From Waddliaceae bacterium (lineage in GTDB: Bacteria; Chlamydiota; Chlamydiia; Chlamydiales; SLFE01): a DNA stretch of 64,000 nucleotides. The notes beneath the pieces are model-generated. The model did no database searches. It had not been told where the DNA came from and saw nothing but the letters and a program-made list of their open reading frames with translations. The stretch lies in contig CAVYRW010000004.1 of the NCBI GenBank assembly GCA_963771045.1, forward strand, positions 1,152,001 through 1,216,000, written 5' to 3'. The translations under genes and the position numbers were made by a program. Below, piece after piece: positions 45,765 to 53,038 of this stretch. Position 1 is the stretch's first letter; each line of letters starts with the position of its first letter.

Positions 45765-48700
45765 ATGCGATCCCTTTTTCTTCTCTGCTGCTTGGGTTGG
45801 ATTTCGCTCTTTGCCGAAGATGATTGCGAAGATTTCACTCCATCATCACCTTTTGAAATTTCCGACTTGACATGCAGCAAAGAATTTCTTGTCGGGGGAT
45901 TGATCAATCCTTTAAGCGGCCAGATCTGCATCAATAAAACCGATCTGGTTGCCAAAGGCGCTCAGGATATTGTCATTAACAGAACATATATACCTCCTTT
46001 CCTCCCGGAAAAGCAGCACAAAAATCCGGACCTCGATAAGGCGCTCAGACATCAACAACTTTTTCGCAGTTATCGAGGATTTACAACACTGCCTCATCTT
46101 ACACTCAGATTGAAGTCAAATGGAAGGATACAAGTTGCATCTCAGAATGGCTCGCTTTTAGATTTTAAAATGACAAGCCGCGGAGACTATGTTTTAGACA
46201 GTATCCCTTATGGGATCAGCAATTATGCCGCCGGCAGGCCAGGGGGGCAGTTTGATGTCAGAAACATCAAGATCAACCGATCAGAAAATGAGATCGCCAT
46301 TCATTTTCCCGATGGCTGCAGGCGTGTCTATAACAAACAGAGTACCTCTTCATATACCTTAGGCAAAGAAATTTTACCGAGCGGCAAGATCATCAAATAT
46401 CATTATCAACATGGCGCTATCAGCCTGATCGAGAGCTTGGACCCCGGCGAAAAGCACATCTATGCCTCAGTTGAAGTCAAAGGATCGAAGGAGAAAGGGA
46501 AGCAGGAATTTTTCGCGTCAAGCGGCGCTTTCGCATCACATTCATATGAAACAAGAATGCTTCAATCCGAATGGAAGGACAATGGAAGTCGTTTTAAACA
46601 AGGACTCCGTTCCAAACTCTATTTGACGGCAGCAGAAGGCTCGTTTTTTGACAAAGAAGAGTTTTCGTATAGCGAGGATCTTTTTTTATCGGAATGCAGA
46701 AGCTCCCGTCTCCCATTTAAAAGTTTGAGCAAGATCACAAAAGCCCCAGATAACCAATATGACACTCGCGTGAAAAATCTTATCTTTGACACGTCCGATG
46801 ACACGTCTTTCATGGGAGTGGAAAACATTGAGTACTCTCCCCCCTTGCCGGGAAAGCTAAATGGAGAAACCCTGGTCGCTTATCAAGACGGCTCTAAAAT
46901 CGTTTATCGTTACACAGATCAATTGCTTCTCGAATCGGTAAAATCATTTCAACCGGATGGATCTCTTAAGAAAACAAAACTCTTTCACTGGGATGACAAC
47001 AATCGATTGTCAAGGATTCAGTTATTTGATAGCGGCGAAGAACTGCTCTATGAAAAGGCCTATGAATACGATGATTTTGGCAATCCGATTCTTGAAACGA
47101 TCACAGGAAATGCTTCCTACAGCATAAGAAGGGAATTCTCTCAGGATGGCATGAATCTGCTCTTGAAAGAACAAGAGGACAGCGGAAAAGAGACAGTTTA
47201 TACCTACCTTTCCGAAACCAACCTCCCGACATCAAAACTCACTTCAGAAAATGGCAACATTTTCCAAAGAGAATATTGGGAGTATGACGACTGTCATAAT
47301 TTGATCGGCAAAATTATTGATGATGGAAAATCTCCTCCGGCTGAAAGACGCATAACATCCTATACCCTTCGCCAAGAAGCGCCGTATCTCCATATGCCGG
47401 AATGGATCGAAGAAAAATGCGAAAAAATCCTGAAAAAAACTCATTTGATCTACGACCAATATGGCAATGTTTCGCAAGAGGATGTATATGACTCTGACGG
47501 AAATTTCCGGTATTCACGATTCAAGGAATACGACAAGAGAGGCAATTTAATTTCCGAAACCAACGCGCTAGGACAAACAGCCTACTACGAGTATGATCAA
47601 AATGGCAACCTTCTAACAGAAACCTCCTTATCCGGAAAACTGAAAAAGGAGTATACCTACGATCTTAGAGGACGGTGTTTAACTGAAACACATCGTGGAT
47701 CCAATGGCGAATTGAAAACTTTTCTTTACAAGTATGATAATAACGATCAACTGATCCAAAAGATCGTCAATGATTCACACATCACTCGCTATACCCTTGA
47801 TCCCATTGTCCTAAAACCGACCACCATCCAATATCCTTCAAACGTAAAAATCTGCAGACAATACGATGCTTTAGGACGCGAAACAGCCAAAACCGATCCT
47901 GAAGGATATACAACATACACCACTCGAAACCTCTACGGCTCTCCACTGCAAATCGTTCATCCCGATGGAACAGAGGAGAGGTTTTTATACTCAAAAGAAG
48001 GACATCTTTTAGAATATATCGACCAAGAAGGCAGCAAAACCGCCTACATCCGAGATATACTTGGCAGAGTTTTAAAAAAGACATTTTTTACAAAGGCAGG
48101 AGAAGAACTCGGCTCAAAATCTTTTGTCTACAATTCCTTTCACCTTCTGAAAGAAACCGATCTAGAGGGGCATGCCACCTCTTATCACTACGATGGAGCC
48201 GGTAGAAAAATCAGTGAGGAAAGAGAGGGGAGAATTACTGAATACTCCTATGACTCTCTGGGAAGATTGGCAACTGTTAAGAAAGATTCCCTTCTTCACC
48301 ACTACGAATATGACCTTCTCGATCGTATGATTCAAGAGACGAAAACCGATTTAGATGGAACAATTCTTTATCAAGTCGACTATGAATATGACGAAGATGG
48401 CAACCGCTCAGCAATTACCCGAAACCATGCCGCCGAAAAATTTTCATACGATGCTTTTGGCCGGATCACCGTTCGCAAAGACTATGAAGACAATACCATC
48501 GCTTATACCTATGATGACTGGTACGAAAATTCCTTTTTGAGAAAGACAGCCGTCGACCCCTCAGGCAAAACAACAGTCACTATTTATGACCCCTTTGAAA
48601 GGATGACATCCGAGCAACAGTTCGATCAAAATAAAGCGACGCTTCACTTTAAAGATTTAAAATATGATTCGAGAGGCAACCTGATCAAAATCAGTGAAGA

Positions 48701-52537: not shown

Positions 52538-53038
52538 ATGGAATTAAAAATAAATAAACATAAGCTAGATCCAAAGAAAACTATACCTTTTTTTGTAGAT
52601 AATATTCGTTGTGGAAATGCTTTATCCGAAGAAGTTATTAAAGCCATTGATTTTGAGAAAGGGGAATTTTTTACATTTCTGCCCAGTAACGCAGAAATAG
52701 ATCGAATCTATAATTTTAAATGGGGAGGAATATTCCCAAACGCATTTCAAAGCTTAGAAAGCTGTTCAGGAATCAAAGATCAACCTCGCATTGAGCGGAA
52801 AACTGGTATATCAGATCAGTTCCATGTTGATTTTATTAAAAATTATTTAATCGAAAGTAGAAAAAGGCTTATGATTATTGATAGTTTTAATGAACAGCCT
52901 GATGATCCTCATCTAGGAATAGAAAATGTAAATATGTTTTCATATAAAAATGAAATTTATTATGCTTTGGACAACAAAAATGGTAGAGAAGAAATCGATG
53001 AGGCACTTTGTGTAGCAGATCTCATTTGGCATTCTTAA
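52538..53038 (+). pseudogene. Divergent immunity paralog 3, truncated by the IS91-like element
   Basis: GNALS....IDFEKGEFFTFLP..A......F..GGI aligns with immunity 1 and 2; ends at the IS junction. Confidence 0.72.

Follow-up and report, generated by a model that had tools for sequence, protein, structure and literature searches.

Among the closest described relatives of the locus analyzed here are the Rhs-borne Ntox37 toxins of Zhang 2012 (PMC3482391). The accessible text of that study presents Ntox37 as an all-beta domain with the signature E, [KR], Hx[DH], occurring in chlamydiae on RHS repeats and exported by way of a signal peptide (type II secretion system (T2SS)/Sec); it names Imm32, from Bacteroidetes, as the only immunity family for Ntox37, and it defines homogeneous polyimmunity loci. 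The same text credits Waddlia-like intracellular bacteria with hardly any immunity proteins, Simkania and Odyssella being among the exceptions, and reads adjacent immunity genes in amoeba endosymbionts as signs of inter-bacterial conflict, not of action on the host. For Vibrio arrays of type VI secretion system (T6SS) effectors and immunity genes, the accessible part of Kirchberger 2017 (PMC5361080, within which Jackson 2009 and Koskiniemi 2014 are cited) describes sequential displacement by homology-facilitated illegitimate recombination together with ordinary homologous replacement. Chlamydial RHS proteins form a predicted outer-membrane cluster in the consulted portion of PMC2811131, and Konig 2019 (PMC6520448), in the part available, treats polymorphic toxins as a possible basis of chlamydial protection of amoebae against other bacteria. 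Here we analyze an Rhs toxin gene and the tip and immunity genes behind it in a 64,000-nucleotide stretch of DNA (the window, G000:C4:1152001-1216000) from a Waddliaceae bacterium whose genome (G000) comprises 2.57 Mb in 5 contigs and is 90.6% complete.

Our analysis indicates that this is probably a Sec-signal Rhs polymorphic toxin locus with a recombination-exchanged tip, that it likely delivers a predicted RNase of the Ntox37 type into co-infecting relatives, and that the proteins encoded downstream likely protect by binding the tip. The locus is of a known kind and common in the phylum: of 401 chlamydial genomes, 318 carry Rhs-associated cores, frequently as multiple copies, but such cores occur in 1 of 30 genomes of family f35, whose genomes are small, and in 0 of 25 of genus g37 (1.0-1.3 Mb genomes, by that size presumably the Chlamydiaceae). 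Its new elements are the immunity family, the model of the complex, an array made up of alleles of a single family with crossovers that fall within the tip, and direct evidence that tips are exchanged in an obligate intracellular lineage. Host-dependent chlamydiae, as the locus suggests, likely fight close relatives. An initial annotation, made from the letters alone, had assigned the DNA to a likely intracellular chlamydia, and this chlamydial origin is borne out by the genome that we used as relative for comparison (G001), a same-genus Waddliaceae metagenome-assembled genome (MAG). The features of the locus, with window positions, strand and basis, are as follows.

45765-50594, + strand: Rhs/YD-repeat polymorphic toxin, 1609 amino acids (aa), intact frame (open reading frame (ORF) and family matches).
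45765-45815, + strand: predicted Sec signal peptide, 17 aa, with the Rhs body starting immediately after it (hydrophobicity, paralog pattern).
49941-50168, + strand: Rhs-associated core ending in DPDG, with both motif aspartates, D1442 and D1465, present (TIGR03696, sequence).
50169-50330, + strand: hydrophobic first part of the tip, shared between alleles (model, with one long helix at low confidence; hydrophobicity).
50331-50591, + strand: Ntox37-type all-beta toxin domain, allele 1 (Pfam, alignment, model).
50349-50352, no strand: recombination switch, upstream of which the sequence follows the G001 orthologue and downstream the paralog G000:C4:1115281 (informative sites).
50599-51264, + strand: immunity-family gene 1 (imm1), 221 aa, predicted cognate of tip allele 1 (family, model).
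51261-51341, + strand: decayed older tip end of 81 nucleotides (nt) with a GPHWD motif and an in-frame stop, cut off at the orphan-tip junction (sequence).
51342-51769, + strand: orphan tip, allele 2, with no core fragment (ORF, identity to allele 1).
51778-52443, + strand: immunity-family gene 2 (imm2), 221 aa, 80% identical to imm1 (ORF, family).
52440-52547, + strand: decayed end of a third tip allele with a GPHWD motif, overlapping the start of imm3 (sequence).
52538-53038, + strand: immunity-family gene 3 (imm3), 31% identical to imm1, truncated at 166 of 212 aa (ORF, G001 comparison).
53037-54643, + strand: broken IS91-like insertion sequence (IS) element cutting imm3 (family match; near-identical copies at 43251-43759 and 35796-37230).

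The 1609-aa protein matches RHS_repeat PF05593 (181 bits, E 2.5e-54) and YD_repeat TIGR01643 (134 bits), and its nearest solved relatives are Rhs proteins. Its N-terminus consists of M-R, a hydrophobic run (KD11 = 2.31), LFA and then EDD, with a weak DUF6531 match (E 0.023) directly after the predicted signal peptide; a signal-peptide-like start is also found in three Rhs paralogs and in the Rhs of two other chlamydial families. We rejected a lipoprotein reading of this N-terminus, a canonical lipobox being absent by eye. The Rhs-associated core occupies residues 1393-1469 (TIGR03696, E 2e-24, 85.9 bits against a cut-off of 32.5), and its end, NPFQYCDPDG, fits PxxxxDPxG, with DPDG at residues 1465-1468 and its last nucleotide at 50168. 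We take D1442 and D1465 to be the aspartates of the Rhs self-cleavage motif, with the catalytic role presumed. The ORF and family matches thus bear out the earlier description of an intact Rhs protein with a signal-peptide-like start, a DPDG junction and small genes downstream. That the protein has no PAAR or VgrG domain also held, as no such family matched; across the 90.6% complete genome, PF05488 and TIGR01646 gave 0 matches to PAAR/VgrG genes, and control families did match. Delivery by T6SS was rejected because PAAR/VgrG was absent from both the Rhs protein and the genome searches.

The tip that follows DPDG is 141 aa long in the active copy (allele 1). Its likeness to Ntox37, proposed in the initial annotation, is supported by Pfam matches (below the cut-off in the window), relatives, Atlas clusters and signature residues: of 14 aligned tips 13 match the Ntox37 model, and in the two leading Atlas clusters for the tip 51% and 57% of members carry Ntox37. 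Among 28 aligned tips, D99, H102, P108, H109, W110 and Y112 (tip numbering) are invariant, E94 is nearly so, D111 is G in 3 of the 28, and K132 is conserved; E94, H109-W-D111 and K132, together with an all-strand domain, agree with the signature E, [KR], Hx[DH]. D99 and H102 may act catalytically in the manner of colicin E3. The AlphaFold model of the tip comprises a long low-confidence helix at residues 10-53 and a small domain at 75-131 made of strands only (predicted local distance difference test (pLDDT) 77-86). This model had no Foldseek match, the wide fold search being filled by the N-terminal helix so that the beta domain was barely probed, and a word-index search with the tip region matched only a paralog in the same genome. 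Residues 2-41 of the tip are the most hydrophobic part of the entire Rhs protein, and the hydrophobic first part as a whole is likely a membrane-crossing segment and likely also a homology arm for tip exchange.

In ESMFold2, three runs on tip residues 55-135 with imm1 gave a median score of 0.87, and the best of three controls scored 0.00. Of solved complexes, 116 of 157 attain this mark, and of mismatched pairs, 2 of 215; these counts hold roughly, own alignments having been used here. The runs share at least 91% of contacts with a partner pLDDT of at least 92. Modelling of tip-immunity pairs, a check put forward with the initial annotation, supports binding. Profile searches of Protein Data Bank (PDB) sequences in the tip and immunity work returned noise only, and because they gave no like complex, a pass from model memory is less likely. 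The predicted interface includes D99, H102, D111, Y112 and R122 of the tip, so that the complex model supports imm1 covering the tip's conserved residues. All 7 differences between alleles 1 and 2 within tip residues 55-135 fall on this interface (7/37 vs 0/44, p 0.003), and differences between imm1 and imm2 are enriched there (12/35 vs 28/170, p 0.02), with opposite charge changes at the interface (K113V and R116E in the tip, Q146K and I150R in the immunity protein).

Comparison with G001 and with a distant paralog revealed that the active tip is a mosaic. G001 carries the same Rhs in the same place, behind a tryptophan/tyrosine permease gene, with the core 96%, the tip 71% and the first immunity gene 45% identical. 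Relative to G001, the gene is 93-100% identical as far as DPDG, 88-93% in the hydrophobic segment and 57-73% in the toxin domain; relative to the paralog at G000:C4:1115281 the trend is reversed, with 45-71% in the core and 84-93% in the toxin domain. Informative sites favor G001 over the paralog by 73 to 5 before the switch and the paralog over G001 by 70 to 11 after it, for a breakpoint chosen after the fact and sites that are not independent. From ~50530 onward, the window sequence, comprising the end of the tip and imm1, has a 96-100% identical counterpart in an orphan cassette located downstream in G001; the immunity gene of that cassette has a premature stop. Given the identity switch and this cassette match, we conclude that the exchanged unit comprises the toxin domain and its immunity gene; the direction of the exchange events is not polarised. 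A contig from run X3 departs from the window sequence at 51501 and continues as a G001-type allele, so alleles vary in nature. The recombinational tip swapping invoked by the initial annotation is thus upheld in that the tip is mosaic, and is amended in two respects: the switch lies ~60 codons inside the tip, not at DPDG, and the pool consists of alleles of one family. At window 42307-43070 (- strand), 2.7 kb before the start of the Rhs gene, a TraC fragment (PF11130) adjoins an IS91-like copy, and a longer, split traC lies at C4:1819176-1820236. The ORF next to the fragment is presumably TraV-like, and cassettes might be exchanged by way of an F-like transfer region.

Downstream of DPDG, all on the + strand, the order is tip, imm1, decayed tip end, orphan tip, imm2, second decayed tip end and imm3; both decayed ends (51261-51341 and 52440-52547) had been overlooked at first reading. 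The array contains a 1.17-kb tandem duplicate (50169-51340 and 51341-52521) identical at 1052 of 1181 columns (89%). The orphan tip had been noted as such in the initial annotation; its protein is 92% identical to that of the active tip, which makes it a further allele of this toxin and no different toxin. A stop replaces its first codon, and its earliest in-frame start is GTG at 51422. What the array stores are alleles of a single toxin family, and not an assortment of unlike toxins. imm3 had been taken to be merely divergent, and this did not stand: it is cut at 53036/53037 by the IS91-like element and is whole in G001 (212 aa, 100% identical over the shared 166 aa), and all three downstream genes belong to one family.

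The duplicated unit had also been said to begin exactly at the DPDG boundary. Similarity does set in right behind DPDG, from the second base onward (1 nt into the tip), with the 30 bases just upstream matching at 4/30, but there is no fixed start site: elsewhere in the genome, orphan tips begin either 15 codons ahead of the boundary or ~20 residues past the first residue of the tip. Because G001 has the same imm1-remnant-tip junction and these other orphans start elsewhere, the boundary start looks like one inherited junction, and on the same two observations we rejected a site-specific (integron-like) cassette mechanism at DPDG. The ratio of nonsynonymous to synonymous substitution (dN/dS) among immunity paralogs is 0.12-0.32 over 10 pairs. 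Since displaced tips decay and their immunity genes stay under purifying selection, the array likely widens protection against kin alleles.

Four full-length copies of this Rhs (100, 86, 72 and 53% identical) are present in G000, all with the same tip family. In the 86%-identical paralog (G000:C4:1237818-1244640) a stop comes straight after DPDG, formed by the same three bases that open core-less orphan cassettes. Behind it stand a tip with an immunity gene, then a frameshifted orphan that retains 15 core codons, and a further immunity gene; the stop could be explained by a point mutation or a joined orphan cassette. A second Rhs family (G000:C3:1-14000 and C4:2036025-2042963) bears tips of ~240-280 aa ending in unrelated toxin-like domains, along with classical orphans retaining long core fragments. 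The Rhs locus at G000:C3:37243-44000 is ~100% identical in DNA to G001:C44 over almost the whole gene, above the window locus, with recent transfer or a mobile contig as possible causes. In G001, the orthologue of the window gene (L016:5483) begins ATA, not ATG, and upstream (L016:3484-3945) there is an internally deleted Rhs remnant, in which the predicted signal peptide is fused to a late part of the core; similar deleted forms occur in run X3 and L040.

The immunity family was unrecognized in the initial annotation, and it is indeed unnamed: 0 of 33 members match Imm32 or any other Pfam Imm model at E 0.1, the Imm32 model spanning 54 positions against proteins of ~210 aa. Relatives of imm1 form 764 clusters at 50% identity. 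Its model is alpha/beta with a pLDDT of 92.6 and had no Foldseek match at E 0.001; the best VIA hit was Z 4.5 over 82 residues at a root-mean-square deviation of 3.7, by which a new fold is not proven. An Atlas search with imm1 reached unnamed clusters at 0.89-0.90, with low recognition and as a lead only, and plasmid records held no match for the member searched. There are 13 matches to the family in G000 (matches, not copy numbers), and the family occurs in 50 of 401 chlamydial genomes across 14 families, with 0 of 30 in f35.

A Ntox37-type tip lies directly upstream of the immunity family in 22 of 30 chlamydial loci, these being the best loci of 30 of the 50 positive genomes, G000 and G001 included; seven of the other 8 stand in strings of small genes or beside a deleted Rhs, and one has the tip farther upstream. 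Among metagenomic or viral loci, found with a chlamydial tip query that favors close relatives (76 loci, 74 with the tip by profile, 70 with at least 300 nt downstream), the family follows directly in 39 of the 70. The IMG/VR viral contig L064 (4177 nt, guanine-cytosine (GC) content 0.57) carries a Ntox37-type tip with a family member directly behind it. The family is not confined to chlamydiae, because one member comes from an Anaerolineales MAG. At one other locus a weak Imm32 match stands behind the tip, in agreement with the pairing in Zhang 2012. A second family, of ~70-105 aa, cysteine-rich and with the motif DHxHCxFCW, lies directly behind Ntox37-type tips at L089, L090, L097, L100, L110 and L124-L128; two members scanned had no significant Pfam match, and it is probably an alternative unnamed immunity family. 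The imm1 family appears, with a confident model, as the main and so far unnamed partner family for the predicted toxin Ntox37. Our literature search, with most subscription papers and the main supplement of Zhang 2012 outside its scope, found no study of such loci or of the imm1 family and no phylum-wide survey of chlamydial Rhs tips and immunity genes; the text of PMC9816063 contains neither 'rhs' nor 'toxin'.

We propose the following course of action for the system. The signal peptide would take the Rhs protein through Sec to the periplasm, where the YD repeats would fold into a cage, and self-cleavage at DPDG, as expected from the family, would release the ~140-aa tip inside it. The cage might then leave through the chlamydial T2SS, or by lysis or vesicles, which is the weakest step. 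The hydrophobic first ~55 residues would aid the tip across the target membrane, and the ~80-aa beta domain with D99/H102/H109 would attack RNA in a co-infecting relative. The 221-aa cytoplasmic immunity protein would, from the modelling, clamp over the tip face bearing D99, H102, D111 and R122. Toxin domain and immunity gene, as the comparison shows, move together between loci and strains, with the crossover in or just past the shared hydrophobic segment. Two secretin loci, read by eye as type II and type III secretins, are present in the genome; both are frameshifted in the assembly.

More tentatively, and as a possibility rather than an expectation, environmental chlamydiae may wage allele-specific toxin warfare in shared host cells via T6SS-free signal-peptide Rhs cages, with one nuclease family whose immunity-binding face diversifies in step with an unnamed immunity family of unrecognized fold, a hydrophobic tip segment that is both membrane-crossing helix and recombination arm, and a phylum-wide kin discrimination lost in the small-genome family. 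If true, this would offer a candidate mechanism for symbiont-mediated exclusion of co-infecting bacteria. This type of locus is a concrete candidate for the polymorphic-toxin protection of amoebae raised as a possibility in the accessible text of PMC6520448. The natural tip/immunity allele pairs make specificity directly testable, and the locus provides sequence evidence of toxin-tip exchange in an obligate intracellular lineage once said to carry hardly any immunity genes.

Several observations weigh against delivery of an immunity-matched RNase into relatives. The two window tips score 21 and 17.7 bits, under the Pfam Ntox37 (PF15535) cut-off of 27.8, and just 3 of 12 tip relatives pass it (best 68.7 bits); the RNase activity of the family is itself a published prediction. 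No outer-membrane-passage gene is conserved beside the Rhs paralogs inspected, and a different gene stands behind the tip in 31 of the 70 metagenomic or viral loci. There are signs of decay, including the paralog with a stop after DPDG, the ATA start of the G001 orthologue and IS copies that cut several arrays. The interface enrichment lacks a surface-matched control and is gone for distant pairs (p 1.0 and 0.26 for immunity proteins, 0.11-0.27 for tips), and the complex score is blind to cognate versus cousin, 10 of 12 colicin cousin pairs also passing. For these last reasons, allele specificity is put forward here as a hypothesis.

The tip/immunity pairs might instead have an internal toxin-antitoxin (TA) role, as shown for Salmonella rhs-CT/immunity pairs in macrophages in the accessible part of PMC7043789. 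This would suit an intracellular organism for which no delivery partner was found, as well as an orphan tip whose in-frame GTG at 51422 lies upstream of the whole toxin domain and a sigma-70-like site at 51288-51317; promoter-like sites are, however, common in the scan (30 vs 17.7 in shuffles) and so are no evidence. A TA module needs no intact 4.4-kb core and conserved predicted signal peptide, yet these are kept in several paralogs and families, and immunity genes retained beside dead tip remnants fit defence against incoming toxins. We consider an internal role unlikely, and it would not exclude an intercellular one. That the Rhs is aimed at the protist host, the immunity proteins merely preventing self-poisoning during synthesis, seems very unlikely to us. 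The organism lives inside eukaryotic cells, 4 of 28 tips (both window alleles included) end in a lysine/arginine run like a nuclear localisation signal, and the accessible text of Zhang 2012 (PMC3482391) lists many host-directed toxins in chlamydiae; but 24 of 28 tips lack the basic tail, which also coincides in part with the A-rich region where the next gene starts, and host-directed toxins of those endosymbionts are described in that text as being without immunity genes. Self-protection also leaves the keeping of several orphan immunity alleles unexplained, and contigs of 54-63% GC, probably from outside the chlamydiae (taxonomy not established), carry the same tip/immunity pairing.

The array could also have arisen neutrally, through local tandem duplication and IS activity in a mobile-element-rich genome, and be in decay: the locus is flanked and cut by IS elements, remnants of tips and broken paralogs are frequent, and the dN/dS of orphan genes may reflect past selection. 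A mosaic tip cannot arise by simple local duplication, however, and with the main gene, imm1 and imm2 intact, allelic differences clustering on the predicted interface and the same layout recurring in 14 chlamydial families, we think this account quite unlikely. An assembly artefact would be far less probable still. The secretion genes are frameshifted in the assembly, and no public contig examined covered 50764-51351, which includes the 51341 junction; yet the copies differ at 11% of positions, mostly in a codon-respecting manner, the independent G001 assembly has the imm1-remnant-tip junction and the imm2-remnant-imm3 block (97.9%), and public contigs bridge three joints, namely core to tip 1 across the switch (X1, 50123-50479; X1 might be related to the source sample), tip 2 to imm2, and imm2 to imm3 (X2). 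Because of the shared junction and block and the bridged joints, we conclude that the duplication is not an artefact; spanning sequence, on which the initial annotation had made the duplication depend, supports it at three joints, with the 51341 junction not among them. A Sec-signal toxin with an exchanged tip, likely delivered into co-infecting relatives, remains the reading that we favor.

Elsewhere in the window, the IS copy at 43251-43759 cuts into a nucleotidyl-transferase gene at 43740-44342 (- strand); G001 has this gene at full length (~270 aa) and, with it, the continuation of a sugar-nucleotide operon. Large ORFs without a family match lie among the IS elements at 29553-30767 (- strand), 31317-32606 (+ strand) and 37299-41789 (+ strand). 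These are probably host-directed chlamydial proteins, and the 404-aa ORF among them is presumably RasGEF-like, judged by eye. A second tandem repeat at 32707-34723 (1.0 kb, 89%), by eye two IS3-like transposase copies, is unrelated to the toxin array. No Rfam match was found in the window.

Compared with the Rhs-plus-Ntox37 class of Zhang 2012 (PMC3482391), the window has the same predicted layout, a signal-peptide Rhs with an Ntox37-type tip, that the accessible text already lists for chlamydiae; it differs in that its ~210-aa immunity family matches no Pfam Imm model, Imm32 included, and in that one immunity family is matched 13 times in this Waddliaceae genome. Among Gram-positive bacteria, the Sec-exported Rhs toxin WapA, treated in the available part of PMC12704120, is alike in its signal peptide (a predicted one in the window protein), its DUF6531-Rhs cage, its pre-toxin segment with a C-terminal toxin and its independence of T6SS, whereas in the window protein no wall-binding domain was recognized and there is an outer membrane to cross. 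The Vibrio T6SS effector-immunity arrays (Kirchberger 2017, PMC5361080), as far as the accessible text describes them, share the retained immunity genes and the 3' remnants of older effectors, but here no PAAR/VgrG gene was found in the genome, the host organism is obligately intracellular, and the immunity genes are mostly of one family. The orphan rhs-CT/rhsI and cdiA-CT/cdiI modules in the consulted portion of Poole 2011 (PMC3150448) share several features with this locus: a full toxin with DPxG followed by its immunity gene, start-less orphan tips with intact immunity genes, and the same locus bearing different tips in related strains. Those modules diverge abruptly at DPxGL into unrelated tips, and their orphans keep core sequence; the window, by contrast, holds alleles of a single family and a core-less orphan, with exchange ~60 codons inside the tip.

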